A stretch of 64,000 nucleotides of DNA from a virus (IMGVR_UViG_3300045988_098461:20546-84545); one strand, 5' to 3'; positions 1-63,826 are shown, counted from the stretch's first letter. The notes: generated by a model from the sequence alone, not told the origin. A program made the numbers and translations.

Positions 1-3000
1 CGTCCCACCAAAGGTTTCCATTTGCGAAATAGCCTGTTCCGTCAAAGCGCAAGAGGGACTTGGCAGCAATTTTCTTCTCTTCCTCTGTTGTCGTGGAGGC
101 TTGCTTGTCGATAGCCTTTCCACCTAGCCAAAGGGCGATGCCATTCTCCTTCGTGTCCGCTCCATTGATACCTGCGGTAACATTTCCCTTATCGTTACGT
201 AAGGCTATCAATGTGGAGAGGATAAGACCACCCTTGACTACTGTGTCTCCATCAACAAGAGCAGCCTTGATGTATTCAAGACCAGCCATATTAGTGATGA
301 GCTTAGTATTGAGACCATCAAACAGATTAGACGTGATATAGTTGTTCGCCACACCCAGCTTGTCGTAGAAAGCCTTATAAGCATTCGTGAAGTTGGTATA
401 CTTCTGAGCCGCAGCCGCCTTGATGGTAGCCTTTCCATTTGAATCAGAAGCGTTGTATCTGCTTACGATGTCAGAAAGATAGGTAATGAGTTCATTTTTT
501 GCGCTATCGAGTGTAGCCTTAGCTGAAACCAAATCCGTTTTATAGGTCGTTTCATTACCATCCTTATCCAACAAGAACTTAGAGCCAACAACATTATTAT
601 ACGACTCAACGGCTGCATTATAATCATCCTCCAGTCGCTTGCTATCCTGTGCGATAGCCGCAATCTCCGAGCTATCCAAGTAGCCATCAGAGGTAAAATC
701 ATCGAAAGCCTTCTTGTTGTTAGATACGGTCGTTCCGAGGGTATTCAAGTTGCTCTGTGTCGTCTTAATCTCTTCTTGCGCCTTCTCAGCAGCTTTCTTG
801 GCTTCCTCTGCCTTCGTGTCATCGGTATACTTGCTAGCCAATTTCCAATCGGCAATATCGAACTTTTCTCCTTCTGCCTTGGCGGTGGAACACTTCAAGA
901 TTTCATTCTTGTAGGTACTTCCATCGCTAGGATAGGTGGCATTGACCCACATATCGTTCACGTCGTATGGGGGAACTGGCTGTGAACCGAAAATGCGTCT
1001 CTTGTCTGCGATATACTTATCCAAGGTTTTGCCATCATAGGTGGACTTTATATCCAATTCTCCCTTGATGGTAACTTTCTTCGTCTCGCTATCAAACTTG
1101 ACATAGGATTCACCCTCGTAGTTATTGGCACTAGTAGGTCGGTCTCCGAAGTACATATCTCCGTAGACGTGGAAGAAAGCCTTGTTCGTGGAATGGTTCA
1201 CGCCATAGTTCACATACTCCTTGTTATTAAAGGTGTAGCCGTCAACTCCGTGATAGAGTGTTATGCAAGGGGAATAGGTGTCAACGGCAGAGAATACCAA
1301 GCAACTTTGCCTTGTGATGTTCGTTCTATTACCGCACTGATTCAGAATGTCATCAACCATAGGCTCATCGCTGGCTGCGTCCTTGTCGATGTCCGATAAA
1401 TCCACATAATGATATTTCTTGCCATCTATCTCCACTGCCTCGGAAGACACACCGATGACTAGCCTCCAATAGTAATGGTTGCCTACGTTATGATACTTTC
1501 CTGCCGTAAGATTGAAGCTCTTGCTCCTTGCTTGGTCTCCAACCTTCCATTTATTCTCCACCTTTGAGCCATCTTGCTCACCAAGGAAGTAGCATCTGTA
1601 AGCCTTCTGACTAACACCATCATAGGTAATATTCACCTCCTCAACCTTCAATATTCGGTTACTGCCTACTGGGGTGATGAACAATTCACCACCCAATGTG
1701 TCTGTATGCAATATTTCCAAGGTCTCGAAGATTGCTTTCATTCTGACTTGTAGATAATCTGTGGTTAGATGGGTGTTATCTAGTTCGTCAAGAGTCCAAT
1801 CCCCGTTCGCCCCGACCTTCATTCCCTTCAAGAACTTCTGGAGCTTTTCCCAAGTGATAGTGCCTTTTGCAATGTCATCGAACTGCTTAGATATAAAATT
1901 ATCACTTCCGTACTTCGCAATGAGTTTTCTTAGCTGGGAAACGGAATATCCACCTCCGTTACCGCTACTTCCTCCGCTCGCAATAATTGTCTGTACGTCT
2001 TCTTTGAGCTGCGTGATAGTGCCCTTAATTACTTGATTGCCTATTGTAATCGACTGAATAAAGTCGTAATCAATATTAGTCGATAGCTTCAACACTCTTG
2101 TCGCAAGCTCATATCCGTGTCCGTCCTTATACGTTATACTCTGACCGATTTGTAGTTGAGGGTTATCTTCCAAGAATACATCAGAATATGATTTAACCTC
2201 ATAGTTATTCAAATCAGAGAGTAATCGCACAATCTCCTCCTTTGCTTTCTCTAACAATCTATTTTGAGCATCCTCGTAATAGATAGTATCAGCCATTGCA
2301 ATATTATAGAGTACCGTGATATTACACTTCAAAGAAGGTTTGCTTTCTCCACGAGGAATGAGCATTTCTGCTTCATTTGTAGGTATAATGACCTCATTAT
2401 CCTCTTGATAGATAATTTCGTAATCACCAGCCAATACAGAGAAATTACTATCACTAACATCATCTGACGTATGCGAGGATGATGCCTCTTTATGATAGAT
2501 AAGTTCAAAGCCTACATATTCGCCGTTAGAGCCACGACCAGCAAGTGGAGTAGAAAGCGCACCCGTATTAAAGTTTGGTTCAAATGAGCATCCGATATTC
2601 TTACCATTGATAAGCAAATCATCTGTAACCTCAAAGTCATACCAATAATGAGTAACGCCATCATCAACTGTTGTATTGATAATTGTCTTTCCTTCTACTT
2701 TTTCTGTAGCAGGATAAGCCAATTTCATATACCATACTGTAAAGGTCTTATATTCCTTAACCGAGCCATCAGCATTATAAGAAATAGGTATTTTCTTATT
2801 ATTATCATCAAGCACATACTTAACTCGCCCACGTACATTATATACATAGGTATTGAGCGAAGGATAAATCTGAGAAAAATCAAGCACCTTCGTAAAGAGA
2901 GGTTCTTTCGTTTTATCCGCTCTAAGGTCAAGGGTAGAATACTTATCAATAGAGTAGGAGCGTTCCTTTCCGTCTATTAATATTGTACCATTGCCCTCAT

Positions 3001-3772
3001 CTAATTGCAGACGAATATCGCCAGATGAAACATTCTCACCTTTGCTATTTACTTGTGTAATATTTCTAGTACCGCCGAAGATAGAGAAAGCGTTATAGTA
3101 GCCTTCTTTGCTATTATTGATACTTGGTACACCTACATTCTTTCCAACCTCTAAAACGACAGGAGTTGCACCGATTAAGACCTTACCGATGTAGATAATT
3201 TCATCATCATAGTCAATATGCCATTCGCAGTTATCTCCAATAGCATTTGTAATTGCTGTAAGTGCAGAAATAAAATCGTTATCGCTGAATGATACATTGA
3301 CAGTATTTGCCGTTACATTTGAAAAGATAACTTTCCATCCGCATTCGCCAAACATTAAATCCTTGTTAAGGAAATCTTTTATTTTTTCGCTAAGTGCAGA
3401 TGTAGTACCTACGAAAGACCATACATTTTGCTTTACCTCTACATTCTGTGAATTACGAGTATAGATAAAGAATGGGGTCTTCGATAGAATCATCTTCGGA
3501 TGCTGGAATTGAGGAGTGTACTTCCAAGAGCATTCATCTGATTGAGTAGGCTCATACGATTCCAAGAGAAGAAACTTCCTAGTAACCTCTCTTACTTTAT
3601 CAATCTTATATGTATAATTGATATACGCACCAATGGGCAGAATAACCTTCTCAGCAGCAGAGAAAGACAGAGAAATGTAATCTGACTTAGACATTTCCTG
3701 TTCTCTCTTAGCCGCTGATGTTACTTCTGCTTGCATCAGCAATTTATCGTTAATATCATATATCTTAATCAT
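1..3772 (-). CDS. tail-associated host-specificity / tail fibre protein (Tal-like N-terminus); 5' complete, 3' end beyond the window edge (>=1257 aa)
   Basis: Missing from the ORF track because it has no stop in the window. ATG at 3772-3770 overlaps the TGA of the upstream ORF (ATGA). Hand translation starts MIKIYDINDKLLMQAEVTSAAKREQEMSKSDYISLSF. I checked the frame stop-free at 3542-3772, 1742-1801 and 2-61, where it reads ...KSLLRFDGTGYFANGNLWWD at the edge. Sits directly after the tape measure and Dit-like genes. Confidence 0.7.
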   Translation of the reverse strand, partial: MIKIYDINDKLLMQAEVTSAAKREQEMSKSDYISLSFSAAEKVILPIGAYINYTYKIDKVREVTRKFLLLESYEPTQSDECSWKYTPQFQHPKMILSKTPFFIYTRNSQNVEVKQNVWSFVGTTSALSEKIKDFLNKDLMFGECGWKVIFSNVTANTVNVSFSDNDFISALTAITNAIGDNCEWHIDYDDEIIYIGKVLIGATPVVLEVGKNVGVPSINNSKEGYYNAFSIFGGTRNITQVNSKGENVSSGDIRLQLDEGNGTILIDGKERSYSIDKYSTLDLRADKTKEPLFTKVLDFSQIYPSLNTYVYNVRGRVKYVLDDNNKKIPISYNADGSVKEYKTFTVWYMKLAYPATEKVEGKTIINTTVDDGVTHYWYDFEVTDDLLINGKNIGCSFEPNFNTGALSTPLAGRGSNGEYVGFELIYHKEASSSHTSDDVSDSNFSVLAGDYEIIYQEDNEVIIPTNEAEMLIPRGESKPSLKCNITVLYNIAMADTIYYEDAQNRLLEKAKEEIVRLLSDLNNYEVKSYSDVFLEDNPQLQIGQSITYKDGHGYELATRVLKLSTNIDYDFIQSITIGNQVIKGTITQLKEDVQTIIASGGSSGNGGGYSVSQLRKLIAKYGSDNFISKQFDDIAKGTITWEKLQKFLKGMKVGANGDWTLDELDNTHLTTDYLQVRMKAIFETLEILHTDTLGGELFITPVGSNRILKVEEVNITYDGVSQKAYRCYFLGEQDGSKVENKWKVGDQARSKSFNLTAGKYHNVGNHYYWRLVIGVSSEAVEIDGKKYHYVDLSDIDKDAASDEPMVDDILNQCGNRTNITRQSCLVFSAVDTYSPCITLYHGVDGYTFNNKEYVNYGVNHSTNKAFFHVYGDMYFGDRPTSANNYEGESYVKFDSETKKVTIKGELDIKSTYDGKTLDKYIADKRRIFGSQPVPPYDVNDMWVNATYPSDGSTYKNEILKCSTAKAEGEKFDIADWKLASKYTDDTKAEEAKKAAEKAQEEIKTTQSNLNTLGTTVSNNKKAFDDFTSDGYLDSSEIAAIAQDSKRLEDDYNAAVESYNNVVGSKFLLDKDGNETTYKTDLVSAKATLDSAKNELITYLSDIVSRYNASDSNGKATIKAAAAQKYTNFTNAYKAFYDKLGVANNYITSNLFDGLNTKLITNMAGLEYIKAALVDGDTVVKGGLILSTLIALRNDKGNVTAGINGADTKENGIALWLGGKAIDKQASTTTEEEKKIAAKSLLRFDGTGYFANGNLWWD

Positions 3773-4218: not shown

Positions 4219-7200
4219 TTAATACTTATCCTTCATTAATTTATACATACTTGCGATGTCTTCACGTATCAATATAATAGGGGCAGTATTCTTATTGATT
4301 GCTTCCAACTGCTGTAATCCTTGATACTGAATATCTCGCATTTCAGAGATATTATTATATGTCTGCTCAGCATAGATGCGCAAGAAAGAAACATCAACTG
4401 CGATAGCCTTACGAACCTCATTACCTTGCTCTTGGGCAATTTGCACCGCATAACCGATACCGATAAGGCTGCTTGCTTGGTCTGCGGTGATAGCTTCGAT
4501 AGCCTTGCCCGTTGCCGTCTGCTGAGATTGCGCCTCCTTATACCCTGTTATTGCAGCAATATTATCTCTTATCTTTAAACCTTCATTAACGATGTTATCG
4601 TACTCTTTTTTAAGAGCATTCAAATCATCATCCGAAAGCTGTCCCTGCTTCATCTTATCAGCCCACTTTTCATAAAGGACTTTAAGTCTCTTGTTTGCAA
4701 TATCATCAACGGCAAAGTTAAGCATTGACTTATTGAGCATCGTTGTGAAATCATTTGCGAAATCTTGCGCCGATTTACTCATATCCATAAGATTGCTAAT
4801 AAAGTTGTCCTTTAACGAATCGAAGGTTGTCTGCGTAAGATTCTGATTGATTTTATCAGTCAGCTCTTCAAGCTTCTCGGCAAGGTCGGTATAATTCTCC
4901 CAATATTCAGTTTTATCATATTTACCTTGGTCGGTCATATTCTTCCATACATCTTGGTTGTATGTGCGAATATCCTTCATCTGCTCTGGAGTGAGCTTAT
5001 AAATATCCTCCAAGGAATTTACCTTGCTTATCGTAGAATTAACATAACCGCCTCTTACTGCTGATTGCTGTGCCAACGTGCGATTGATAGCAGCATAATC
5101 CTGTGCCGACAGATTCCAATAATAAGCATTAGAATGATGCGAGCCATGGTAACCCATCTGTGCTTGAAGAATTTCCATACTCTGCTTATTGATTTGCTTC
5201 TGTGCATCATAGGCTTTTTGATAATTGCTGACGGCACTCATTCCCGAAGTCTTATCAATCGAACTCTTCAACTGCTCAATAGAGTATTGCAATCGCTCGT
5301 TTGATTCTGTAAGGCGATTCGTAGTCTCGGCAACCTCCTTCGCATTACTTCCATTGCCGATACCAAAAGCACTACCAAGCGATTTGATAGCCCCTATGCC
5401 GTTAATAGCTGCCCCGATATAGTTGCCCGTAGCAAAGTCTGATGCCGCTTGCGAACCCTTATTGAAGGCATCTGCACCACTTTTAAGCTTCTTTCCAAGG
5501 TCTGAATCACCGAAGCCGAGAACATCAATCAATTCACTTGCTTCTTGTAGCTTCTTAGCAACGTTACCGATGCTTTCTGCCCATTCATTAGCAATCTGCT
5601 TAATTGACTTTCTTGCCTTATCTTGTGATACATTTGCATCTTCTTGTGCCTTCTTTACGTCCTTTGTTGCCTTTCCGACTTTTACCTCAGAAACAGCGAG
5701 CTCATCAAAGAGTTTCTTTAATTTTTCGAGCTGTTCGTTGCTGAGATTCATCTTATTCTCATTAAAGAGTGCGCTCTTATTCTGAGAGGTTATCTTATTG
5801 GTGCTTACAGATACCCCCGTCTCCGCAAAGACTTTTTGTATAGCAATTTTCGTAGAAGACTGCTGTTCTTGTGCATTATATTGCTCTACTGTAGCTTTTC
5901 TTAATCGCTCTTGTGCATCAGCAGCCTCTTGTAAGAGCCGATTATATTCACGCACCTTCTCGTTAGACCAACCCCATTTATCGGTCTGCTCAGAAATAGC
6001 ATCATCAATCTTACCAATCTGTTCAGATACAACCTTCATATCATCAATATCAAGAGTACCCGAACCGAGAAGGTCTTTGAGCTTTTTTCTTAGGTCTTCG
6101 AGATAAGATTTGCTCAATCTTCCCATATCAGAGAAAACAGAATCCCAGTTGATAGAATCCTTGAAATCATTAAAGTTGAGCTTCTTTAGCTGCTCTTCAA
6201 GGTCAGTTTTCAACTTTGCTTCCTCGAAAATATTACCCTTTGCCCTTGCTTCTTTGATTTTCTCGTTATATTCCTCAACGATGGCGAGCTTCTGCTGTTC
6301 GAGATTGCCATACTCCTTCAGGTATTCACGATATGATTTTAATTCATCAGCATAAATCTCATTATTATATAATTCTACAGTCTTCTGTTCAATGATGGTG
6401 TACTGCTCGGTAATCTTCTGAATATTCTTTGAATCAAGATGGTTCTTATCATCCCAAGTCTCAGCCTTGCCACCCTTTGCCTTAATAACAGACTGCTGTG
6501 CGTCAAATTCAGCTTTCTGTCGGTCACGCTCTGCCTTGATAGCTGCATTCTTTCGCTCTTCAATCTGCTCAATTTCTTTGGATAGCTCTCTTTTGCGCTC
6601 GGCAATAACCTTCTCTTCGCCTTCTTTCATCGCCTTAATCTTTGCATCGGTTACCTCCTGTTCCAAAGATTGCCAAGCTTTTGCTCTTTCATAAGCATTC
6701 TTATAGATAACATCATCAAGCTTCCCTTCTGCTGAATTAATCTGCTTCTGTTGAGTAGCATCTTTCTTAGCATCCGATTTTGCTTTATTCGCTAGAGAAC
6801 GTTTTGCTGCTGCCTCTTGTCTGATGAGCATTCTCTGTTCGCTATTCTGCTGAACTTGCGTTCTAAGAACTTGCATTCTAAGTTCACGCTCTGCGGCAAT
6901 ATCCTTCAAAGATTGAGTATGCAATTTAGCTTGCTTTTCATGTAACTCAACGAGCTGTTGCTGCTGCTTTATCTGAAAATCGTATTTCTGCTTAACAAGA
7001 GCCTTTGCCTCCTCAATTGCAGCGATTTTCTCCTTTCCTTGTAAGGTATATATTTTATTTCTTACATCGGCAATTTTTCCATCAAGTTTGAGCTGAGTTT
7101 CCTTATTCTTATTGATAGCGATTTGCGTTTCTTGAATCTTACCTGCAAGGGAAGCCGCTTGCTCTGCCTTTGTAAGTATTCCATTGAATGCCGCTCCTAA

Positions 7201-9363
7201 CTTCTTTGATAAATCTTCATTGGTAAAAGCATCATAGATAGTCTTTGTTGCGCCAATAACACCTGATACTTGTGTTTTGAATACATCAATAACAGTTTCA
7301 CCAGCACCCTTAATTCCATCCCAAGTCTTTTTAAGACCAGCAGTAAAGGTGTCCCAGTCCATATTTAATACACCTTTAATGGTAGTTCCGAGACCTCCAA
7401 TAAGATTTACCGCTGCTTTCACGGCAGTTTTGAACGTCTTTACGAAGTTATTACCGAAGTCACGAAGGGGAGCGTTTGGCTTTGTGAAGCACTTATACAA
7501 GTATTCTCCGAAGATAATCACAATATCTGTGATAGACTTAGCAAGAGAACCAAAGTAAGCCATCAGCTTTGTATAGACCTTCTGACCCTCTGCGGATTTA
7601 GTCATCCATGTATGCACCGCCTTGAAAGCAAGAGCGATTGCAGCAATTACCGCACCCACAGGTGTTGCACACATTCCCCATAGAGCCTTTGTTACAGACT
7701 TGATGGCAGTAAGAGACCCCGTTACGGGAATACCAAGAGCCTTGAAAGCTTCACCGACCTTACCAATCTCACCTTGCAACTTACCATTGGCAGTCATTAC
7801 ATTAATGATTCCGTCTTTAAAATCATTGAGACCAGACTTTGCTTGTGTAAACTCCTCGCTAAAACGCTGACCAATGGAAGAGCCGCTTATCTTGGATTTT
7901 AGCTCATCAATAGGCTGTGTGATTTTATCCTTTATACTCTGCCCAAAATCAGAGATATTTTGCAAGGAATCGGAAATCTGATTACGTAATCTGCCAATAA
8001 AAGTCTCTTCGTTCTTCTCACGAATAGCCTCTTGTAATACAGATATATTATTCTTCGTCTTTTCAATCTCAGATTGCAAATTTCCCAAATCCGCTTTCTG
8101 CTTATCACCAAGAGGCTTTCCGCTGAATTTATCGGTTTCCGCTTCAAGCTCCTGCAATCTTTGCTTACTCTCGTCAAGTTTATTATTAAGCTCAGATAGA
8201 GAAGTATCTTCTATATTGATGCTTACAGTTGAAGATGAAGAATCAGGTTGAACGATAGCTTTTCCACCTTGTATCTGATTTGCAGCTTCAAGCAAGGTCG
8301 TGTACTCACGGAGGTCAGCATTAAGTCTTTGCTGCTCTCCACTCATTGCGTTTATCTTAGATTGTAAAGAATCTATATTATCCTGCGCTACCTGTATAAG
8401 TTGATTATAGTAATTAGCACCTTGCCCAGATTGATTATCCTCAGAAGAGAGATTTGATATAGCTTCCTTATAGCTATTAATTTTCTCTTTCTGAATCTCT
8501 ATTTTCTTTGTTGCCTCTTCAATATTCTTAGCATAATCAGTAGAGCCAAGCTTTTGCTGAATATCATTGATGGCTTGCTCATATAGTTTAATATCAGCTT
8601 TAAGTTCCTTTGTGCTTTCAGATTGCATTCGTTCAATCTCGGCACGACCCGAAGCAACGGAAATATACTGTTGCAAGGCTTCTGTAAGATGTTTGGTTGC
8701 TTCTACGTTCTGATTCTCAGCTTCGGCATTCTGTGTTGCCGCCTCGGCATTTGCTACGTGTGCTGCCGCTTCTGCCGAGGTAGCAGTTGCCGCCGTTGTA
8801 GCCGTTGCTCCTACAGCAATATTCGTTGCAGATTGTACACTATTAGCACTTGTGCTTGCAACCGAGAAAGCACTTAATGCCTGATATGCACCATTTACCT
8901 GAGAGATAGAATTTCTAACACCATCATAAGATTCAACAAGGTCTTTTACATCACCTTTCGCCAATTCCAAAGAGTGCTTTTGAGCATCAATCTGCTTTGT
9001 AAGCGAACCGAATGCCTCTGAGCCCTTTTCTGTCTTAGCTAACTGCTCGTTAAGTTTACCGATAGTACCTTCAATGGTTTCTACTCGTCTATTGGCAGTA
9101 TCAATCATTTCTGGTACTACCTGTATCCCCTTTGTGGCTTCATCCATAGCAGATTTAAGAACCTGCATAGCCTTGGTGGTCTTTGTCGCAAGGTCTTCAT
9201 CGGATTGCGCCACATCGTTAAGTGCCTTATTCATTCTCTGAGATAAGGCTTCTGTATCAACGCCGACACGATTCAAACCATCACAAAGCTTATCAAGTGA
9301 TGCTTGAATATCGGAAATATCCATCTGTCCGCTGATTCCAAGTATTTCATCTGCTGCTGCCAT
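4219..9363 (-). CDS. tail tape measure protein
   Basis: 1714 aa. Long Q/E/K-rich coiled-coil stretches with a central Gly/Ala-rich hydrophobic segment (...PVGAVIAAIALAFKAVHTW...). Lies after the chaperone pair. Confidence 0.9.
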   Translation of the reverse strand: MAAADEILGISGQMDISDIQASLDKLCDGLNRVGVDTEALSQRMNKALNDVAQSDEDLATKTTKAMQVLKSAMDEATKGIQVVPEMIDTANRRVETIEGTIGKLNEQLAKTEKGSEAFGSLTKQIDAQKHSLELAKGDVKDLVESYDGVRNSISQVNGAYQALSAFSVASTSANSVQSATNIAVGATATTAATATSAEAAAHVANAEAATQNAEAENQNVEATKHLTEALQQYISVASGRAEIERMQSESTKELKADIKLYEQAINDIQQKLGSTDYAKNIEEATKKIEIQKEKINSYKEAISNLSSEDNQSGQGANYYNQLIQVAQDNIDSLQSKINAMSGEQQRLNADLREYTTLLEAANQIQGGKAIVQPDSSSSTVSINIEDTSLSELNNKLDESKQRLQELEAETDKFSGKPLGDKQKADLGNLQSEIEKTKNNISVLQEAIREKNEETFIGRLRNQISDSLQNISDFGQSIKDKITQPIDELKSKISGSSIGQRFSEEFTQAKSGLNDFKDGIINVMTANGKLQGEIGKVGEAFKALGIPVTGSLTAIKSVTKALWGMCATPVGAVIAAIALAFKAVHTWMTKSAEGQKVYTKLMAYFGSLAKSITDIVIIFGEYLYKCFTKPNAPLRDFGNNFVKTFKTAVKAAVNLIGGLGTTIKGVLNMDWDTFTAGLKKTWDGIKGAGETVIDVFKTQVSGVIGATKTIYDAFTNEDLSKKLGAAFNGILTKAEQAASLAGKIQETQIAINKNKETQLKLDGKIADVRNKIYTLQGKEKIAAIEEAKALVKQKYDFQIKQQQQLVELHEKQAKLHTQSLKDIAAERELRMQVLRTQVQQNSEQRMLIRQEAAAKRSLANKAKSDAKKDATQQKQINSAEGKLDDVIYKNAYERAKAWQSLEQEVTDAKIKAMKEGEEKVIAERKRELSKEIEQIEERKNAAIKAERDRQKAEFDAQQSVIKAKGGKAETWDDKNHLDSKNIQKITEQYTIIEQKTVELYNNEIYADELKSYREYLKEYGNLEQQKLAIVEEYNEKIKEARAKGNIFEEAKLKTDLEEQLKKLNFNDFKDSINWDSVFSDMGRLSKSYLEDLRKKLKDLLGSGTLDIDDMKVVSEQIGKIDDAISEQTDKWGWSNEKVREYNRLLQEAADAQERLRKATVEQYNAQEQQSSTKIAIQKVFAETGVSVSTNKITSQNKSALFNENKMNLSNEQLEKLKKLFDELAVSEVKVGKATKDVKKAQEDANVSQDKARKSIKQIANEWAESIGNVAKKLQEASELIDVLGFGDSDLGKKLKSGADAFNKGSQAASDFATGNYIGAAINGIGAIKSLGSAFGIGNGSNAKEVAETTNRLTESNERLQYSIEQLKSSIDKTSGMSAVSNYQKAYDAQKQINKQSMEILQAQMGYHGSHHSNAYYWNLSAQDYAAINRTLAQQSAVRGGYVNSTISKVNSLEDIYKLTPEQMKDIRTYNQDVWKNMTDQGKYDKTEYWENYTDLAEKLEELTDKINQNLTQTTFDSLKDNFISNLMDMSKSAQDFANDFTTMLNKSMLNFAVDDIANKRLKVLYEKWADKMKQGQLSDDDLNALKKEYDNIVNEGLKIRDNIAAITGYKEAQSQQTATGKAIEAITADQASSLIGIGYAVQIAQEQGNEVRKAIAVDVSFLRIYAEQTYNNISEMRDIQYQGLQQLEAINKNTAPIILIREDIASMYKLMKDKY

Positions 9364-9387
9364 ATTGTTTGCTTATTTATGTGATTA

Positions 9388-9597
9388 TTACATCATGCCC
9401 ATAAAGAAATCATTAGCAGAAATTGACTTATCTATCTTATGATACTCTTTTTGTGGCTTCTTTTGCTGTCTGCTGCCTTTTCTCGGTTCATCCTTGGTAT
9501 TTGTATTAAAGGGCGGAATCGAGCGGTTAAGCAGAATAATATTAAGGTATGAGCGATTAAATACGACCTCCTCGTAACTCATACGAAAGTACTTCAT
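9388..9597 (-). CDS. tail assembly chaperone, -1 frame part (gpT-like)
   Basis: Lies in the -1 frame relative to 9597..10043, and that frame stays open upstream past the slippery site. TAATG junction. Immediately upstream of the tape measure. Confidence 0.5.
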   Translation of the reverse strand: MKYFRMSYEEVVFNRSYLNIILLNRSIPPFNTNTKDEPRKGSRQQKKPQKEYHKIDKSISANDFFMGMM

Positions 9598-10043
9598 TAC
9601 TTCTCCGATTGTTGCCCACGGGGAGTCGTTTTCGGCTCCGTCATTATCTTCGTCTGAGTTAGGAAAGTTATAGAGGTTAAGAAAAAATTTGCATTGAAAG
9701 AACCACTTATAAACTTCACAAGCTCATTGAATGCCATAATATCAAGGTGCTTGCGTATATATCGCCCCCATACCTTGCGTGCCCACTTCTTTCGAAAGGC
9801 GCACACGATAAAAATCTCGCTCATTAAACGAGCCGTCTCAGAGTGCTCAAACAAAAGAGGGATGATATTCATCATATCGCCTTCTTTCCATGTTGGTTCT
9901 TTGATAGAGTTACCGAATACACCCATTTCATAAATCTGCATAAAGGTAAGTGGCTTCACTTTAAAGCGAAACATACCAACCTTAATCTTTACAGATGCCT
10001 CGGAAAGCGTTTTTGCTACCTTTTCCTTATCTGATGTTTTCAT
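9597..10043 (-). CDS. tail assembly chaperone (gpG-like)
   Basis: 148 aa, between the major tail gene and the tape measure. Contains the heptamer T_TTT_TTC near its 3' end. Confidence 0.55.
   Translation of the reverse strand: MKTSDKEKVAKTLSEASVKIKVGMFRFKVKPLTFMQIYEMGVFGNSIKEPTWKEGDMMNIIPLLFEHSETARLMSEIFIVCAFRKKWARKVWGRYIRKHLDIMAFNELVKFISGSFNANFFLTSITFLTQTKIMTEPKTTPRGQQSEK
9681..9687 (-). promoter_or_regulatory. putative -1 programmed frameshift slippery heptamer (T TTT TTC)
   Basis: The minus strand reads GCA AAT TTT TTC TTA (..ANFFL..) in the G frame. The -1 frame is open from here to 9388. Confidence 0.45.
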
Positions 10044-10060
10044 ATCAAAATATGTTTTAT

Positions 10061-10111
10061 AACATAAAAAGCGGTGCGGCTTGGGAAAGTTCCCTTACCT
10101 CACCGCCTTTT
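10061..10111 (-). terminator. intrinsic terminator after the major tail gene
   Basis: GCGGTG(10071-76)...CACCGC(10101-06) stem with inner GGGAA/TTCCC pairing, followed on the minus strand by TTTTTATGTT. Confidence 0.55.
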
Positions 10112-10151
10112 GAAGTTTAATTTTAAATCATATAAAAGATAAAAGCTTTAC

Positions 10152-10721
10152 TTACTTCACAATAGCCGCAGCACTAATATCCTTTGTGAGGATATTGCGA
10201 TGACCGCTCTTCTTGTCACCCTTTGCATCGAATACCGCCATCTGACGGAACTCAATGTTAAGATTAGGAAGTCCACTCTTACCGATAGAACCACTGCGAG
10301 TGATTGTAAGTTTCATCTTAGACCACTGGAAGGTACGAGAAGGAATATCATCCAAATATTTTGTTACAATCTGTACAGCCTTGTAAATCTCGGTTTCTTG
10401 CGGAAGCTCATTCAACCAAGCATCCTTACCACCAGTACCAGAATCCTTTGTGTAACCAAGAAGCTTCGTAAAGTTTTCTTCTGAGAAATCGTATGTCTGC
10501 AAGGTAAAGCCCTTTGTTGCTGCTGATGTGGTCAGCACTGCGTAAGGGTCTTCTGAATCCTCAACCTCTACATCCGATGTCTGTGCTGCCTGGTCGTTAA
10601 AACTCAAGCTACCAGAAACGACAGCCTTAATTTTGTCGCTCCATGTTGTTGGGTAGCCGCCATTTTCGACACAATCGGCAAAACGGAAGCTTTCCAAGCC
10701 ATATACACCATTCTTTGCCAT
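10152..10721 (-). CDS. major tail protein (position-based)
   Basis: 189 aa, directly upstream of the chaperone pair and followed by its own terminator. Confidence 0.55.
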   Translation of the reverse strand: MAKNGVYGLESFRFADCVENGGYPTTWSDKIKAVVSGSLSFNDQAAQTSDVEVEDSEDPYAVLTTSAATKGFTLQTYDFSEENFTKLLGYTKDSGTGGKDAWLNELPQETEIYKAVQIVTKYLDDIPSRTFQWSKMKLTITRSGSIGKSGLPNLNIEFRQMAVFDAKGDKKSGHRNILTKDISAAAIVK

Positions 10722-10725
10722 AGTT

Positions 10726-11130
10726 TTATTCTTTTAAATTATTATACGTTACATTAAATTTCATATTGATGTAATAAGTGTTATCACTATCACGAGTAGG
10801 GCGAGAGATAGAATAGAAATCGAAGTAACAGCCACCGAGGTAAGTACCGTCACCAAACAGAGAAAGAATCTTCTCCGAGTAATCAGAGAGCTTCTTTATG
10901 TTAGGTAGATTTGATAAGGTCTTAGGGCAATGAATATTCAAATTCACTACACCCTCATTAATAGCATCACTATACACAAAGGGAAGATGATTGATTGCGA
11001 TATAATCACAAACCGCCAACTTCTCGGGTATCTCATATTTAAAGATACGACCTTTCTTTATGCCTATTCTCTCAACATTATCATTGAGATACTTAAATAA
11101 TGCCGTAACGGCTGTATCACCGAGTATCAT
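10726..11130 (-). CDS. tail completion / tail terminator-like protein (position-based)
   Basis: 134-aa ORF between the gp10-like gene and the major tail gene. Confidence 0.35.
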   Translation of the reverse strand: MILGDTAVTALFKYLNDNVERIGIKKGRIFKYEIPEKLAVCDYIAINHLPFVYSDAINEGVVNLNIHCPKTLSNLPNIKKLSDYSEKILSLFGDGTYLGGCYFDFYSISRPTRDSDNTYYINMKFNVTYNNLKE

Positions 11131-11132: not shown

Positions 11133-11612
11133 CTAACTATCGCTTTTAATCATTTCAGCTACTTCTTCAAAAATCTTCTTCATTTCGTCACGAAGGAAAT
11201 ACTTTGTAAGGTGTAAGACATTGTAACCTTTATCCTCTACATGTTTTCCGTAATTCATACCAGCAACAATGACGAGAGAGTACCCTTTGGGTGCTACTAC
11301 CCCTTCTTTCTGTGCATACTCACTGAGTGCAGCACTTACGCCTTCCTGTCCTCCTTCCGCTTCTTCTGCCTTTGGAATCTTACCAACTGCCGAGGTGATG
11401 AGTTGACCATCAAGGTAGAGAGCGAAAGAAATTGAGTTCTTTAAATTTGCAGTTCGGTCTTGATAACCTTTATTTTCTTTGGAAAAGGTGACCGCTTCTT
11501 CGGCAAGTTGCATCAAACGCATATTAAGGTAGCTGATAATCTGCTACCTCTTTTCATTCAACCTTTTCTGTAAGGCTTCACGACCTTTGATTTGTAATTC
11601 AACCTTTGCCAT
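11133..11612 (-). CDS. HK97 gp10-family head-tail joining protein, interrupted by an in-frame TAG at 11544-11546
   Basis: ATG at 11612 is in frame with the track ORF 11133..11522. Hand translation gives MAKVELQIKGREALQKRLNEKR*QIISYLNMRLMQLAEEAVTFSKENKGYQDRTANLKN. This aligns without gaps to the intact paralog at 32463..32939 on both sides of the TAG. Confidence 0.6.
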
Positions 11613-11623: not shown

Positions 11624-11959
11624 TTAGAGCCAAATTCTAAGATAGCGTTTTTTTAAGGTTACGAAGCCTTTAACCTCCATTTCCTTATCAATCGTGCCAT
11701 CTTTCTTGGTTATCCAAACCTTTTCGCCTTCCTTCGGTATGAGAGGGTATTTTGCTTTTGAGAGAGGAGCATAGATTTCGTGTGAATACACGTACTGCTG
11801 CCCGTCTGCCAGAGTGATAATCTTCGCCTGCGAATTAGGCAAAATAACGCACTTTCCAAAGGTTTGCCATTCTCCTTCGGGCTGTTCGATAGGATTTCCG
11901 TCCTCATCAAAGCCATCTTGTGGAGCACCTTTTACTTTAAGTATATCTTCAAAGTTCAT
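11624..11959 (-). CDS. head-tail adaptor / head closure protein (position-based)
   Basis: 111-aa ORF in the connector module. Confidence 0.4.
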   Translation of the reverse strand: MNFEDILKVKGAPQDGFDEDGNPIEQPEGEWQTFGKCVILPNSQAKIITLADGQQYVYSHEIYAPLSKAKYPLIPKEGEKVWITKKDGTIDKEMEVKGFVTLKKRYLRIWL

Positions 11960-11974
11960 ACGCTATCTATATGA

Positions 11975-12328
11975 TTACCATACCTTCACACTCTGAACCC
12001 AATAATCATCAGAAGTACTATCAATAACAAGGTCAGCATCCAATCCAGCATCCTTCGCAATAGATTTAATCATCTTATCAATAAGATTCTTGTCGTTCTT
12101 GTAACTCTGAGAGATACCGCCAACATTCTCACTTGATAATGGATTCATCTTGTAGAGGATACGCATAGCCGCATAGGCTACGGGTTTCTTTACCGATACA
12201 GAGTATTCATCAGCCACGGATGCCGTGATGCTAAACTTATCAGTAGCATCAATAAACATCTTCTCCAAGGTCTCATCTGAGGTAGAGAAAGGCTGAATCT
12301 CGCTTGCTATGGCTTCTGAAATTGTCAT
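11975..12328 (-). CDS. head-tail connector protein (position-based)
   Basis: 117-aa ORF directly downstream of the major capsid gene. Confidence 0.4.
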   Translation of the reverse strand: MTISEAIASEIQPFSTSDETLEKMFIDATDKFSITASVADEYSVSVKKPVAYAAMRILYKMNPLSSENVGGISQSYKNDKNLIDKMIKSIAKDAGLDADLVIDSTSDDYWVQSVKVW

Positions 12329-18992: not shown

Positions 18993-19022
18993 TAAAGAAA
19001 ATCTGAGATATTCGCTTAAAAT

Positions 19023-19040
19023 CTATTAAAAAACTAATAG
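19023..19040. promoter_or_regulatory. perfect palindrome CTATTA-N6-TAATAG (operator candidate)
   Basis: Lies between the divergent promoters. CTATTAA/TAATAG half-sites recur next to most promoters in the window. Confidence 0.4.
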
Positions 19041-19075
19041 TTAGTATTAATAAACTAAAAATAGCTATTAGAAAA

Positions 19076-19107
19076 TTTGGTAGTCTAAGATAAAGTTATT
19101 AATTTTG
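19076..19107 (+). promoter_or_regulatory. Bacteroidota-type promoter TTTG-N20-TAATTTTG
   Basis: TTTG at 19076-79 and TAATTTTG at 19100-07. Confidence 0.6.
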
Positions 19108-19191
19108 CGGTATCAAAGTTAATAAAATAGCTTTTGATACATATAATTAATGTGGAAATTATTAATAAATTAAAAATAGGAGATACGAAAA

Positions 19192-25501: not shown

Positions 25502-25566
25502 AAATATCCGATTTTCTTAGTTTTGTATTAATATCTATTAAAATACTAATAAAAACACTGAAAAGA

Positions 25567-25598
25567 TTTGTTAGTTTCAAAAGAAATTATTAATTTTG
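25567..25598 (+). promoter_or_regulatory. Bacteroidota-type promoter TTTG-N20-TAATTTTG (cassette copy A)
   Basis: TTTG at 25567-70 and TAATTTTG at 25591-98. About 105 bp is nearly identical to 34452-34560. Confidence 0.65.
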
Positions 25599-25645
25599 CG
25601 GTGTAAATAATTAATAAATAGGTTTAACAATTAAAAGATACAACA

Positions 25646-25864
25646 ATGGAAACAAAGAAAATTGCTCGATTCAGATTTACAGCACTTGCCCATACTTTCG
25701 ATAGTTGGGATGAGGTTATAAGTTATTACGAAAGACTTGTAGAGTGTGGTGAATGTATGGTACTTCCTACTCTTTCATTTTGGGATGGTAAGGTAAGAAC
25801 CAATAAGTGGCACGCACATGTTAAAAAGAATGGTAAAATTGAGTTTACAGAAATTGAAAAATAG
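25646..25864 (+). CDS. hypothetical protein
   Basis: First ORF after cassette A. Confidence 0.55.
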   Translation: METKKIARFRFTALAHTFDSWDEVISYYERLVECGECMVLPTLSFWDGKVRTNKWHAHVKKNGKIEFTEIEK

Positions 25865-28925: not shown

Positions 28926-29774
28926 ATGGAAGCAACTATTTTATTAGGCAATCATAATGATTGTAAGATTGATACGGGAAGATATGTAGAAACGGACGTT
29001 ATGGGTTGGAAAGCCACTATCTATGTACCGAGTGGTATTGATAATGAGCAGATTCAGAAAGCCCTTGATTACGCTTATTCTACTCTCTGTCAGAGTTGCT
29101 ATATGGAGTTTATCTTGGCAGACAACTTCCTTCTTATCTCTAAGGAGGTCTTTGATAAGAAGAAGGTGTTTAAGTTCAATCTTAAAAAGCACTTTACTGA
29201 ATGCCAAACATCTATTCGTGATACGATGAAGTTGTATGAGCGAAATATGGATGAAGACTACTATAATGAGTATTCTACCTATCTTTGGGATTTGATTAAG
29301 GATAAGGTTGAGAAGTTACGAAAGATGATTGAGGATAAGCTTCGCAATCTGAAATGTAAGTATAACCCTTATCTCTGCTCGTATGTCATTATGATTCAGA
29401 ACCTCGTACAGCAGATTAATGATACCCATATACACGTTATGGAGATTACCGAAAGGGAGTATGGAGTTGATATTGCTCCAAGCTACGAAAATTATCGGGC
29501 TAAAATGGCATTCACGCAAGCGGATAATTGTCTGTACGACATCATGCACGATGAAGCAGAGAAATTCCGTGACAATATCGTTAAAGATAAGAAGGTTATC
29601 GCCGTATGGTCTGATATAACAAGAACTCTCTATGACCCTATCAATGCAAAGAAGGCTCGTTTCTCGGCTTTCTATAGTATGCCTAAGGAAACACAAGCTC
29701 TCTATAATTTGAGAGAGGAGGATGGCTTCTGCGAGCCTAAAGAAGGTACTAAGAAATTCAAGAAAGGAGCGTAG
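28926..29774 (+). CDS. hypothetical protein
   Basis: 282-aa ORF with AAGGAGAAG upstream. It ends in TAG, 3 nt before and in frame with the methyltransferase ATG. Confidence 0.55.
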   Translation: MEATILLGNHNDCKIDTGRYVETDVMGWKATIYVPSGIDNEQIQKALDYAYSTLCQSCYMEFILADNFLLISKEVFDKKKVFKFNLKKHFTECQTSIRDTMKLYERNMDEDYYNEYSTYLWDLIKDKVEKLRKMIEDKLRNLKCKYNPYLCSYVIMIQNLVQQINDTHIHVMEITEREYGVDIAPSYENYRAKMAFTQADNCLYDIMHDEAEKFRDNIVKDKKVIAVWSDITRTLYDPINAKKARFSAFYSMPKETQALYNLREEDGFCEPKEGTKKFKKGA

Positions 29775-29777
29775 GGT

Positions 29778-30521
29778 ATGGAGTTAGATAATATTTACTT
29801 CGGAGATTGCATTAACCTTATGCGTGATATTCCTGATAAAAGCATAGATTTATGTGTTACGGATGCACCATATCTCCATAATAAATCGCCACTTAGTCCT
29901 ACGTATGATGGGAGTGAATGGAATCAGAAAAGTTCCTTTGGAAAATCGGAGCTTTATAAATATGGTGGTGATATGATGGGAGGGATGAGTTGTTTTGGCG
30001 AAGAAGAAATAGATAAGTTCCTTGATGCATTAAAGCCGAAAATGAAGATAATGAATGCTTATATGTTCTGTTCGGAAGAACAGGTACCGTATTATTGTAA
30101 CTGGGCTAATAAGAATGGCTTGATGTTTACAATACTCGTTTGGGAAAAGCCGTTATCTATCATTAACAAAAATCGTTTTTCGCAGAACCTGGAGTACATA
30201 GTACGAGTATATGATTACGGTACTGCTCTTAATCGGTTAAATAATAACTTGTATTATAATCGGGTAAAGAAAGAAAAACCGATTAACGGGAAAAGTAAGA
30301 ATCATCCAACAGAAAAACCTGTCTCAATTATGCAAGAGTTCGTTGAACTGAGCAGTAATGAGGGTGATGTGGTCTTGGATGCGTTCTGTGGCTCTGGTAC
30401 GCTTGCGATAGCGTGCATTAATACTAACAGACATTTCATTTGCTTTGAGAAGAATAAAAAATTCTTTGATATTGCTAAGAAACGGGTTAAAGAACGGAAG
30501 CAACAACAAACAATTTGGTAA
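29778..30521 (+). CDS. DNA methyltransferase (N6-adenine/N4-cytosine, beta class)
   Basis: Motif IV is TDAPY. It is followed later by HPTEKP and AdoMet motif I DAFCGSGT. Confidence 0.8.
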   Translation: MELDNIYFGDCINLMRDIPDKSIDLCVTDAPYLHNKSPLSPTYDGSEWNQKSSFGKSELYKYGGDMMGGMSCFGEEEIDKFLDALKPKMKIMNAYMFCSEEQVPYYCNWANKNGLMFTILVWEKPLSIINKNRFSQNLEYIVRVYDYGTALNRLNNNLYYNRVKKEKPINGKSKNHPTEKPVSIMQEFVELSSNEGDVVLDAFCGSGTLAIACINTNRHFICFEKNKKFFDIAKKRVKERKQQQTIW

Positions 30522-31154: not shown

Positions 31155-32018
31155 ATGGACGAAATTAAAATTTTGCACAAATCTACTTTCCTAGGTAAGG
31201 AAATAGATGTATGGGGAACTTTTGATAACCCATTATTTCGGGCAAGTGATGTAGCAGATTGGCTACATAACACAAATGTCTCTAATATGGTTAAGAAGGT
31301 TGATGAGGACGAAGTGACTAAGTTTAACTTAGGCAGTCGTCAAGGTGAAACTCTTTTTCTTACAGAGAATGGTCTTTATGAGATACTTATGTTATCTCGC
31401 AAGAAGGAAGCCAAGCAGTTTAAGAAGGGAGTAAAAGCTATCCTTCACGAAATCCGCACCAAGGGCGGCTACATTGCTTCTTCGGTCAATGATACTCCCG
31501 AAGCTATCATGGCACGAGCCTTGAAGATTGCGGATGAGACATTGAAGCGGAATGAGCAAAGAGTTCGTGAGCTTGAAGCTTAGACCGAGCAGCAGGCACA
31601 GACCATCGGCATTCAGCAGAAAGAACTGACTGTTGCCGCACCAAAGGTAAAGTACTACGATGATACACTTGCATCAACGGACTGCCTTACCACCACACAA
31701 GTTGCTGATGACCTCGGTATCAGCGCAAGAGCACTCAATCAACAACTTTCCAATGCAGGTATTCAATACTTTCAATCAGGTTCTTGGCATTTGAAGGGCA
31801 AGTTCCGTGAATGGCAGCTCGCAAGCACCCGAACCTACAATTATATCAAGGGTGATGGTTCTACGGGCACAAAAGTAAACCTCGTATGGAATCAACGTGG
31901 CAAGCGTTTTATTCTTGCTCTCTATAACAACGACTTTAATGTGAAAGATGCTATCGCTGAAATCAACGGCGAGAAGAGAGCTGCGCTTGTATCTAAAAAC
32001 AATCAGTCTAACTTTTAA
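31155..32018 (+). CDS. Bro-N / KilAC(ANT)-type antirepressor, interrupted by an in-frame TAG at 31581-31583
   Basis: The N-terminal part (track ORF ending at 31583) looks Bro-N-like. Hand translation after the TAG is stop-free to 32018 and reads TEQQAQTIGIQQKELTVAAPKVKYYDDTLASTDCLTTTQVADDLGISARALNQQL...VWNQRGKRFI, which is ANT/KilAC-like. Track ORF 31791..32018 is the same frame. Confidence 0.6.
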
Positions 32019-32281: not shown

Positions 32282-32431
32282 TGTTATGCGTGAATAGGAG
32301 ATACGCAATACAACAAGGTGTAAATAATTATAGGAGATACAAATGTAAAAGGCAGTACTTTGAAATACGTGCTGCCTTTGTTTTGTTTATATATAATCTC
32401 TGTATTTTCCTGTTATTTACAGAAAAAACTA

Positions 32432-32439
32432 TACCTTTG
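32432..32439 (+). promoter_or_regulatory. -7 box TACCTTTG for the gp10 paralog
   Basis: 24 nt upstream of the ATG at 32463. The -33 box is imperfect. Confidence 0.4.
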
Positions 32440-34373: not shown

Positions 34374-34485
34374 GCGAAAAAATGAATACTATATATTTAT
34401 ATTGCATTTTTTATATTAATATAACCTTAATTTACATATCAATATATTAAAAGCTATTAAAATACTAATAAAAATACCGAAAAGA

Positions 34486-34517
34486 TTTGGTGGTTTTAAA
34501 AGAAATTATTAATTTTG
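34486..34517 (+). promoter_or_regulatory. Bacteroidota-type promoter TTTG-N20-TAATTTTG (cassette copy B)
   Basis: TTTG at 34486-89 and TAATTTTG at 34510-17. Nearly identical to cassette A. Confidence 0.65.
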
Positions 34518-34571
34518 CGGTGTAAATAATTAATAAATAGGTTTAATATTTAAATTATAGGAGATACAACA

Positions 34572-34754
34572 ATGAAAGTTAAATTGATTAATGGAACAGA
34601 AGTAGAAGCTAACGTTTTTGATTACGTTGCTCAGATTTACGAAGGTGGCAAATGGCAGGCAGTTGCCGTTAGCTCTGATTACAATGAAGCTGAAAAGAAA
34701 CGTAAAGAGTATGCCGTAAAGGGCTGCTATACAAGAATAGAACAGCTTTACTAA
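34572..34754 (+). CDS. hypothetical protein
   Basis: TAGGAGATAC at 34558-67 before the ATG. Confidence 0.55.
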   Translation: MKVKLINGTEVEANVFDYVAQIYEGGKWQAVAVSSDYNEAEKKRKEYAVKGCYTRIEQLY

Positions 34755-36731: not shown

Positions 36732-36763
36732 TTTGGTTATCTGAATATTTCTTCGTAAATTTG
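36732..36763 (+). promoter_or_regulatory. Bacteroidota-type promoter TTTG-N20-TAAATTTG
   Basis: TTTG at 36732-35 and TAAATTTG at 36756-63. Confidence 0.6.
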
Positions 36764-36796
36764 CGAATAATTAACATTAAAATAGGAGATACAGCT

Positions 36797-37910: not shown

Positions 37911-37912
37911 CG

Positions 37913-37945
37913 AAAAAAGGTGCGCCGTAATGGTACACCTTTTTT
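37913..37945. terminator. bidirectional intrinsic terminator between convergent ARH and MuF-ART genes
   Basis: AAAAAAGGTG...CACCTTTTTT. Confidence 0.6.
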
Positions 37946-37947
37946 GT

Positions 37948-46118: not shown

Positions 46119-46122
46119 ATTA

Positions 46123-46335: not shown

Positions 46336-46347
46336 AGGCGAAATGAT

Positions 46348-47297: not shown

Positions 47298-47315
47298 AAT
47301 TTTCCTTTCTTTTAT

Positions 47316-47346: not shown

Positions 47347-47352
47347 CGACCG

Positions 47353-48634: not shown

Positions 48635-48662
48635 AACTAATTAAAATTTAAATATTTATCTT

Positions 48663-62628: not shown

Positions 62629-62662
62629 AAGAAAGGGTAGGGCGAAAGCTCTACCCCTTCTT
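62629..62662. terminator. hairpin between convergent genes (overlaps the integrase stop)
   Basis: AAGAAAGGGTAG-GGCGAAAGCT-CTACCCCTTCTT. Confidence 0.5.
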
Positions 62663-63826
62663 GTTATATAGAACATAATCAATAACCTTTCGATTGGCTT
62701 CATCAATCCGTTGTTGGTCTTTTCGCACATATATAGAGGTTATTCTATGGCTATTCTTATGCCCAAGGCAGTCTGCAATAATATCCATACTGATACCAAT
62801 CTCATAAGCAATAGTAGCAAAGGTATGTCTTGCCCAATAAGTAGTTACTTCGGGTATTCCTATACTTTTGCAGATTTTGCTAAGACATCTATTATTGGCT
62901 TGGTCAAAGCTTAGATACGATGCTTTTCTATCGAATTGCTTGATAAGATGCTCTTTCCCTCTATATCGTTCAATAATCTCCATAGCCTCAGGTTCTACCT
63001 TTATATTATATAGCGTTCCCGTTTTTGAGCGGCGATAGGAGATTCTGCCGTTTTCTATTTTTTCTAATTTCGATAGGTCTTTAACATTGATACCCATTAG
63101 ATAGAAGATAAGAAAGAACATATCACGATGTTTAGAACGGATAGGTGATAACTTTGCTTCATGCAATTTTCTTAACTGCTCAACAGTTAATGAGCGTTTC
63201 CTTGTTTCTTCTGATTTAATACTATACATATTAAAAACATATTCTTTAAGGACACCTTTTTTGCGAGCATAGTTTAAGATGGTTCGGATAATCCTTAATC
63301 TCATAGCAATGGTGTTTTTGCAATTTTTTATCTTTAGAAAATCAACGAAATCATCCAACCAGTCTATATCTATATCTTCAACCCTTAATGTATCATAATC
63401 ACAGAAATCTTTTATTCTGTTTTCTGCTGCGATATATATGCGTTTAGTTCCCTCACTTTCTTTCTTGGATAGAAATTCTGCCATCTGTGTTTTGAAAAGA
63501 TGATTCTCGTAATCGGTTTTATCTTCTTCGTTAGACAGATAAAGTGATAGCTTCTTATTAGAGAAGTAGCGCAGTTTGCCTTCTTCTTGCAATTGCACTA
63601 TCTTATCATTAAGAAGGGAAATCCTTTTCATAAGCTTCATATTGATAACTCTCTGTTCGGGTATTCCTTTCACCTTCTCATTCTTAGCATCCCATTCATC
63701 TTCTTTCAGCTCATAGCCTGTGGGAATATAAATGGCACTATCTTTCCTTGCCACTTTGAACTTCAAAGGGAATCTGCCGCTATTCAATCGCCTCCTTTTA
63801 TCCAACTTAATTGAAATCTTAATCAT
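62651..63826 (-). CDS. int: tyrosine recombinase / phage integrase
   Basis: 391 aa with ...YWARHTFAT... and ...LGHKNSHRITSIYV.... Has an N-terminal arm-binding-like domain of the Bacteroidota integrase type and AAGGAGATAC upstream. Confidence 0.9.
   Translation of the reverse strand: MIKISIKLDKRRRLNSGRFPLKFKVARKDSAIYIPTGYELKEDEWDAKNEKVKGIPEQRVINMKLMKRISLLNDKIVQLQEEGKLRYFSNKKLSLYLSNEEDKTDYENHLFKTQMAEFLSKKESEGTKRIYIAAENRIKDFCDYDTLRVEDIDIDWLDDFVDFLKIKNCKNTIAMRLRIIRTILNYARKKGVLKEYVFNMYSIKSEETRKRSLTVEQLRKLHEAKLSPIRSKHRDMFFLIFYLMGINVKDLSKLEKIENGRISYRRSKTGTLYNIKVEPEAMEIIERYRGKEHLIKQFDRKASYLSFDQANNRCLSKICKSIGIPEVTTYWARHTFATIAYEIGISMDIIADCLGHKNSHRITSIYVRKDQQRIDEANRKVIDYVLYNKKG

Follow-up and report, generated by a model that had tools for sequence, protein, structure and literature searches.

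A probably recent nonsense mutation and recurrent lesions in the tail completion protein gene of a common gut Prevotella prophage

The interrupted gene and its neighborhood

In the stretch of DNA analyzed here (hereafter the window; 64,000 nucleotides), a minus-strand reading frame opened by an ATG at position 11612 reads MAKVELQIKGREALQKRLNEKR-TAG-QIISYLNMRLMQ..., that is, 22 sense codons precede an in-frame TAG at codon 23 and the frame stays open beyond it (Table 1). The first-pass annotation had placed this ATG, the TAG and the shorter open reading frame (ORF) reported by gene callers in a single frame, and all three are indeed present in one translation of the window. Intact relatives, which are up to 100% identical to the window gene overall (L014, L140), match all 22 codons that precede the TAG, so that the homology across it is not due to chance. 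The alignment with an intact paralog encoded elsewhere in the window had been described as gapless across the stop codon, and it contains no gaps over the first 60 residues; PHROG 5377 matches the product of the interrupted gene from residue 12 and the paralog from about the same residue. The terminal stop of the gene is TAG ATA TGA, as already reported, and its TGA is part of the ATGA that starts the following gene (ATG at 11130).

Table 1. Coordinates of the features of the window that are discussed in the text
Feature	Coordinates	Strand	Remarks
Downstream tail genes: 134 aa, 189 aa, 148 aa + 69 aa, 1714-aa tape measure	4219..11130	-	Assigned by position
Tail completion protein (TCP) gene, HK97 gp10-like	11133..11612	-	159-codon frame, broken at codon 23
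Direct repeat GAAGAAGCGG, copy 1	11492..11501	-	Copy 2 at 11357-11366; the copies bound the 135-nt deletion
Met31 ATG, first start past the amber	11520..11522	-	Opens the 129-aa ORF 11133..11522 reported by gene callers
Premature amber, codon 23	11544..11546	-	CAG->TAG, coding-strand C->T (G->A at window 11546)
Codon 7 of the TCP gene	11592..11594	-	CAA in the window; TAA (ochre) in sister contigs L002, L005, L006, L009
Two small genes upstream of the TCP gene (111 aa, 117 aa)	11624..12328	-	Head-closure/adaptor positions, assigned by comparison with HK97
Bro-N/ANT antirepressor, 287 codons	31155..32018	+	Second CAG->TAG amber, 31581-31583, codon 143
8-bp hairpin with T-run (32351-32388) and TAnnTTTG box (32432-32439)	32351..32439	+	About 24 nt before the paralog ATG
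Intact TCP paralog, 158 aa	32463..32939	+	52% identical over full length, E = 2e-59; alone in the accessory region
15-bp hairpin overlapping the paralog stop codon	32934..32967		Terminator-like
Tyrosine integrase	62651..63826	-	Pfam Phage_integrase, Phage_int_SAM_5, Arm-DNA-bind_5

In Pfam searches, the PF04883 (HK97-gp10_like) family was matched by 19 of 98 diverse homologs of the interrupted gene product (best E-value 1.5e-5), with no match at E <= 0.01 for the window protein and the paralog themselves. A profile comparison with HK97 gp10 alone gave a weak score (E = 0.18) and yet aligned the same region and the same motif, R-T-G/A-x-L-K/R, which is common to the window family and the HK97 gp10 family. 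The gene order in the window, namely major capsid protein (364 aa), two small proteins of 117 and 111 aa, the interrupted gene, proteins of 134 aa, 189 aa and 148 plus 69 aa, and the tape measure protein, is identical to that of HK97 (major capsid protein, Ad1, Hc1, gp10 family, terminator, major tail, G/GT, tape measure). By comparison with HK97, the 134-aa protein occupies the position of the tail terminator, the 189-aa protein that of the major tail protein and the 148- and 69-aa proteins that of the chaperone; an ortholog of these downstream tail genes in locus L012 matches PhageMin_Tail. About 60-75 loci were free of premature stops in these downstream genes. The two small upstream genes show a weak match to DUF6706 and are intact in all loci. 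The interrupted gene thus follows the head-closure gene and precedes those of the tail terminator and the major tail protein, the position in the gene order that serves as a criterion for tail completion proteins (PMC11099176).

An AlphaFold2 model of the protein (pLDDT 90.6) contains a helix at residues 9-46, strands at 61-67 and 70-75 that form a beta-hairpin, and a second helix at 134-158. [quoted passage not shown] A single copy of gp51 is found inside the neck, where its N- and C-terminal helices form a bundle with three tape measure N-termini (PMC11661146). Foldseek retrieved no significant match for the model among solved structures, and a profile search of PDB sequences found nothing; in the viral library, Foldseek matched a 'putative tail-component' (E = 3.5e-9). 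On the strength of the PF04883 matches among the homologs, the HK97-like gene order and the layout of the model, we therefore call the gene a distant member of the tail completion protein superfamily (the HK97 gp10 / lambda gpZ / SPP1 gp16.1 family). Of the original label, 'head-tail joining (gp10-like)', the second part thus stands, whereas the first should give way to the precise name, tail completion protein.

Gene content of the element

The window comprises most of one temperate siphophage, with genes for the large terminase, portal and minor-head proteins at 37.9-44.2 kb and, on the minus strand, a structural arm that starts at the major capsid protein and reaches the tape measure. The tyrosine integrase indicates that the element is temperate. 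A 185-kb human-gut metagenome contig (L131; ERZ917644 k127_28869) matches the window over 20.5 kb with 100.000% identity and extends about 100 kb beyond it, which points to an integrated prophage. The only species-representative genome with a relative of the element is a metagenome-assembled genome of Prevotella sp. A tail gene of more than 1250 codons (1-3772, minus strand) runs off the left end of the window, and hence the prophage extends past it.

Several other genes of the element are worth recording. A 934-aa minor-head protein (SPP1 gp7/Mu F-like) encoded in the region 36761-40752 is fused to an ADP-ribosyltransferase domain (Bxa-like), and an ADP-ribosylglycohydrolase gene (36761-37585) adjoins and converges with it; the two could be an injected toxin and its antidote. 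The minus-strand region 45516-49523 encodes a GTP cyclohydrolase, a QueE-like radical SAM enzyme and a queuine tRNA-ribosyltransferase-like protein of the queuosine pathway, suggesting that the phage DNA carries 7-deazaguanine modifications. Genes for two DNA methyltransferases lie at 29778-30521 and 44180-44689, and an early-region gene (59972-61207, plus strand) for an RNA ligase, RtcB, possibly counters tRNA-cleaving host defences. We also observe an intergenic element of about 100-130 nt in four copies (19018-19140, 25520-25655, 34440-34580 and 51685-51790), all with CTATTAA motifs that recur and with the invariant TTATTAATTTTGCGGT, in which TTTG precedes a TAnnTTTG box by about 20 nt. This is probably a single Bacteroidota-type promoter/operator that is reused at the head of four transcription units. 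Many metagenome contigs of the phage break near the copy at 25.5 kb.

Origin and distribution of the amber allele

More than 100 full-length relatives (159 aa, 79-97% identity) carry glutamine (most of them), lysine or glutamate at position 23, and, with few exceptions, the roughly 58 loci from IMG/VR and roughly 33 from JGI have CAG there. At window position 11546, A is found in 7 loci and G in 105, with CAG in 105 of 113 loci; the alignment of orthologs thus places a sense codon rather than TAG at this position in more than 100 close relatives. A single nucleotide, the TAG base itself, separates the window allele from the intact alleles of L014 and L140. Among the loci compared, TAG at codon 23 (TAG23) is confined to the window clone group and L063, which represents a different haplotype in IMG/VR. 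Within the clone group, the same allele is present in six contigs from other runs or assemblies (L001, L003, L004, L007, L008 and L010) that differ from the window at 5-7 other positions, and therefore are independent assemblies of the same lineage. A sequencing or assembly error in the window, a possibility raised in the first-pass annotation, would account for the single-base difference from the intact haplotype but is refuted by the identical base in these six assemblies and on the L063 haplotype, so that its probability is negligible.

The allele-sharing contigs were selected by the exact 129-aa product of the shorter ORF, and among the ten that were fetched, six carry TAG23. The remaining four, the sister contigs listed in Table 1, encode the identical 129-aa product but retain CAG as codon 23, and their stop is a TAA at codon 7 (TAA7); this ochre allele belongs to the same haplotype as the window and is one base away from L014. 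Because it was found by searching with the 129-aa product, the sample is biased toward stops upstream of Met31. Gene calls give the exact 129-aa product on 15-19 contigs, drawn from many runs, and the intact protein of the same haplotype on 181 + 7; the truncated product accounts for about 8% of the window haplotype, and nonsense or lesion alleles for about 4% of unbiased loci. Both the amber and the ochre alleles occur on mosaic backgrounds, with flanks that are 97-100% identical around an identical gene, which suggests that the carriers still recombine and spread, as would not be expected of a dead element.

A nucleotide search of 50,697 GenBank phage records yielded no match. A 127-aa homolog that starts at residue 31 (P0129) proved uninformative, as it comes from a 545-bp contig with 1.7x coverage in which the upstream frame is open. 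A deaminase or methylation hotspot for the C->T changes was considered and discarded, since the three sites share no sequence context (as judged by eye).

Stop codon usage and the genetic code

The first-pass annotation raised the possibility that the amber is read through or suppressed, in which case a suppressor tRNA of the host, or an undetected one of the phage, would insert glutamine at TAG and restore the wild-type protein. Consistent with this, TAG->Gln recoding occurs in gut Bacteroidota phages, and suppressor tRNAs have been detected in only about 40% of TAG-recoded genomes (Borges et al.). Both in-frame TAGs of the window, that in the TCP gene and that in the antirepressor, replace CAG, and TAG is, as previously noted, scarce as a stop of late genes, ending 2 of the 18 genes of the structural block and none of the packaging block. 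However, CAG->TAG is the commonest single-transition route to TAG. A search with ARAGORN identified no tRNA, and hence no tRNA-CUA, in the 64,000-nt window or in 21 related loci, and an Rfam search matched no family. In recoded phage clades, 26-71% of the genes contain in-frame recoded stops (Borges et al.), compared with 2 of about 85 genes in the window. Furthermore, both changes are recent, and both codons are CAG in sister genomes: codon 143 of the antirepressor is CAG in 19 other loci, including a sister contig with the TCP amber, and TAG only in L131. The ochre TAA7 allele on the same haplotype lies beyond the reach of amber suppression.

The use of stop codons in the window argues in the same direction. 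TAG ends the TCP gene itself and about 13 (at least a dozen) other ORFs, and its use varies by module, with about a quarter of the genes in the plus-strand early blocks ending in TAG. Naive ORF coverage of the window rises from 75.8% with code 11 to 82.5% when TAG is taken as sense and to 81.7% when TGA is; the similar gains for TAG and TGA imply that there is no signal specific to code 15. Global recoding, with TAG, TGA or TAA read as sense over the whole window, was rejected for want of a specific signal. Four TAG-NNN-ATG junctions (59330-59338, 59702-59710, 59966-59974 and 29772-29780; cttATG, cgtATG, tgtATG and ggtATG) are also present: three small ORFs and RtcB lie in one frame (59015-61207), as do a gene for a 282-aa protein and a DNA methylase. 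These neighbours are called as separate genes in relatives and would be fused if TAG were read through. As far as the sequence evidence tells, TAG is neither recoded nor read through in this element, which uses the standard genetic code, and suppression of the TCP amber appears highly improbable. The suggestion that the amber acts as a deliberate throttle on a morphogenesis gene fares no better, as the stop is derived, is not conserved and is limited to about 8% of its own haplotype, and the sister stop is a different one at another place in the gene.

Recurrent lesions and selection

The accepted lesions of the TCP gene are TAG23 in the window lineage, TAG23 in L063, TAA7, and deletions of 135, 41 and 8 nt. 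The L063 haplotype is 27 nt away from that of the window and 2 nt away from intact L049, and its TAG23 is most likely an independent change of the same C. The 135-nt in-frame deletion, between the two copies of the direct repeat, removes the conserved core of the protein and is found in L174 (a 78-kb contig with 165x coverage) and in L177. The latter additionally carries the 41-nt frameshifting deletion, which is marked by the repeat pair AAAGGTTGAA, and L178 carries the 8-nt frameshifting deletion. By contrast, across about 60-90 loci, the genes for the tape measure, the major tail and major capsid proteins, the protein in the terminator position and the remaining neck proteins showed neither stops nor frameshifts in mid-gene. 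The four events of the unbiased samples (TAG23 in L063 and the three deletions) all fall within 159 of the 1483 codons surveyed around the TCP gene, for which the probability by chance is about 1e-4 on the assumption of a uniform lesion rate over these codons. Among the neighbouring structural genes of this clade, the repeated lesions thus appear to be confined to the TCP gene.

Frameshift 'alleles' that encode a 118-aa product (P0275 and P0276; a 1-nt deletion, 46 contigs) were left out of this count as probable read errors, given the scattered 1-nt homopolymer deletions in other genes that vary between otherwise identical contigs. In particular, a group of Logan contigs (L179-L193, from ERR1064xxxx, ERR4564xxx, ERR8218xxx and ERR9538xxx) lacks single nucleotides in short homopolymers that are affected again and again, in the genes for the tape measure, the chaperone and the major tail protein and in the gene at the scaffold position. 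These deletions are probably read errors as well, and through such errors protein databases acquire frameshift 'alleles' that are false.

When intact alleles are compared, the TCP gene has a pN/pS of 0.08 as a whole and of 0.04 over its codons 1-30, compared with 0.11-0.16 for neighbouring genes and 0.10 for the paralog; the value for codons 1-30 indicates that the N-terminus is functionally important in most lineages, and that for the paralog that it is a working gene. The window's own branch shows 6 nonsynonymous changes, 1 nonsense change and 1 synonymous change, at sites that are otherwise invariant in 50-115 relatives. A signal of relaxed selection in the nonsense lineages (raw p = 0.006) was lost in the comparison with equally short branches of intact lineages (p = 0.07-0.37) and was rejected. 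The two ambers are in keeping with the load of young and mildly deleterious variants that is normally present. The earlier reading of the TAG as a nonsense mutation in a decaying prophage is accordingly borne out in its first part, with CAG in the relatives and no tRNA-CUA found in the window or the 21 related loci, but only partly in its second: the second amber and the 6:1:1 changes on the branch would suit decay, whereas the ratio is not statistically different from that of other short branches and the other structural genes are intact.

The stand-alone paralog

Orthologs of the paralog, 90-99% identical, are present on 10 IMG/VR contigs, and the gene was found in 8 of 45 sufficiently long IMG/VR contigs (about 18%). 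Upstream, the hairpin with its T-run and the TAnnTTTG box read as a terminator followed by a Bacteroidota-type promoter; in combination with the terminator-like hairpin downstream, these elements make the paralog look like an independent, moron-like transcription unit. Both of the amber lineages that could be scored carry the paralog (chance about 0.03, with n = 2 independent lineages); the contigs with TAA7, the 135-nt deletion and the 8-nt deletion, or the flanks fetched for them, end before the paralog position, which is about 21 kb away. It is plausible that the paralog serves as a backup of TCP function.

Interpretation of the amber allele

Taken together, these observations make it very probable that the TAG is a genuine, recent CAG->TAG nonsense mutation of Gln23 in the TCP gene of a temperate Prevotella siphophage with the standard genetic code. 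Most likely, the integrated prophage carries a young knock-out that is either mildly deleterious or tolerated under certain conditions. Under the standard code, translation from the ATG at 11612 would stop after 22 residues and no full-length TCP would be made. Any product started at Met31 would lack over half of the long N-terminal helix which, by analogy, would be the helix that bundles with the tape measure N-termini in the neck structure of 80alpha. Phages that lack the TCP produce normal-looking, mostly non-infectious particles, and the defect is leaky, with an about 100-fold drop in titre (PMC11099176, PMC11661146). The allele could persist through vertical inheritance as part of an integrated prophage, through the leakiness of TCP loss, as seen in model phages, and perhaps through buffering by the intact, apparently separately transcribed paralog. 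Such a leaky phenotype would make the TCP gene the structural gene that is cheapest to lose and would explain why lesions gather there.

The location of both nonsense sites upstream of Met31 hints that an N-truncated product might keep some function, with the caveat that the TAA7 sample is biased. Ribosomes would then restart at Met31 after TAG23 or TAA7 and make the 129-aa product, and the alleles would be near-neutral hypomorphs. The 129-codon ORF is untouched in both alleles, no more than 21 nt separate the TAG from the ATG, the nearly invariant residues of the family are all at position 50 or beyond, and the same codon was changed independently in L063, all of which are in accord with a restart. 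However, the context of the Met31 ATG is at the 7th percentile of true starts and the 30th percentile of internal ATGs, and it does not include the A-rich upstream sequence that is typical of this phage; an evolved internal start at Met31 was rejected for this poor context. Codons 1-30, moreover, are the most constrained part of the gene, and a restart would remove 22 of the 38 residues of the modelled helix whose counterpart contacts the tape measure in 80alpha. The 135-nt and 8-nt deletions, which destroy the core, are found in wild genomes, so that true nulls are tolerated too, and the ochre allele was found via the 129-aa product itself. We thus regard a functional restart product as unlikely, though deserving of consideration. 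It is likewise rather unlikely that the paralog displaces the virion protein and renders the canonical TCP dispensable, as would fit the repeated knock-outs in wild genomes; a more speculative variant casts the paralog as a decoy that is expressed by the prophage and poisons the tails of superinfecting relatives.

Loss of the TCP might even be selected for, if a grounded prophage benefits the host or if the knock-out escapes a defence that senses the protein. The lesions are recurrent and gene-specific, the same C was changed on two haplotypes, and nonsense alleles occur on several recombinant backgrounds, as would be expected under this scenario. Nevertheless, such alleles remain in the minority, both within the haplotype and among the unbiased loci, the gene overall is under strong purifying selection, and no defence system or other source of selection was identified. 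The weaker cost that follows from a leaky phenotype explains the same pattern without invoking any advantage, and we consider selected loss improbable. A young knock-out with a mild or conditional cost remains the preferred interpretation of the amber allele.

With respect to annotation, these results indicate that a lone in-frame TAG in a phage of Bacteroidota does not amount to recoding, and that a comparison with sister genomes settles the matter quickly. In a very common gut Prevotella prophage, TCP knock-outs are present at a level of a few percent while the neighbouring structural genes are intact. Such natural knock-outs agree with the laboratory results in which the TCP is the most dispensable component of the neck and tail. 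That a moron-like second copy can stand in for the TCP is a testable idea; a paralog that does compensate would make the element a clear example from nature of redundant virion genes.

Comparison with known systems

The window TCP occupies the same slot in the gene order as lambda gpZ, SPP1 gp16.1 and 80alpha gp51 (PF04883), has a similar size (159 aa, compared with 112-255 aa in known TCPs of this type) and, in the model, shows the succession of long N-terminal helix, beta-hairpin and C-terminal helix described for 80alpha gp51. Unlike these model proteins, it falls below the Pfam threshold and has no Foldseek match among solved structures. The stand-alone second TCP copy outside the structural operon is another difference, not having been described for the model phages. 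The phages that use code 15 (crAss-like, Lak and others) resemble the window in having a Bacteroidota host and an in-frame TAG at a glutamine position of a late gene; in contrast to these phages, the window has no suppressor tRNA that could be found, keeps TAG as a normal stop and contains in-frame TAG in a far smaller fraction of its genes, at positions that are not conserved in relatives.

Pseudogenes of degrading prophages are similar to the present case in that derived disabling mutations, with two ambers in one genome, are found in an integrated element whose own branch shows mostly nonsynonymous changes; they differ in that, in the window, the other structural genes are intact, the ratio of changes on the branch is not distinguishable from that of other short branches, and the structural lesions fall in one gene instead of being scattered. 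An experimental parallel is provided by the SPP1 sus (amber) mutants in gene 16.1, in which an amber likewise interrupts the TCP gene prematurely. Judging from these mutants, normal-looking, mostly non-infectious particles with some leakiness would be the expected phenotype. Unlike the laboratory sus mutants, the amber of the window is natural, persists in gut populations without a known suppressor host, and occurs alongside other lesions of that gene, namely an ochre allele and several deletions. What the present analysis adds to these systems is a population picture that combines gene-specific, recurrent loss of the TCP with a conserved second copy outside the structural operon.
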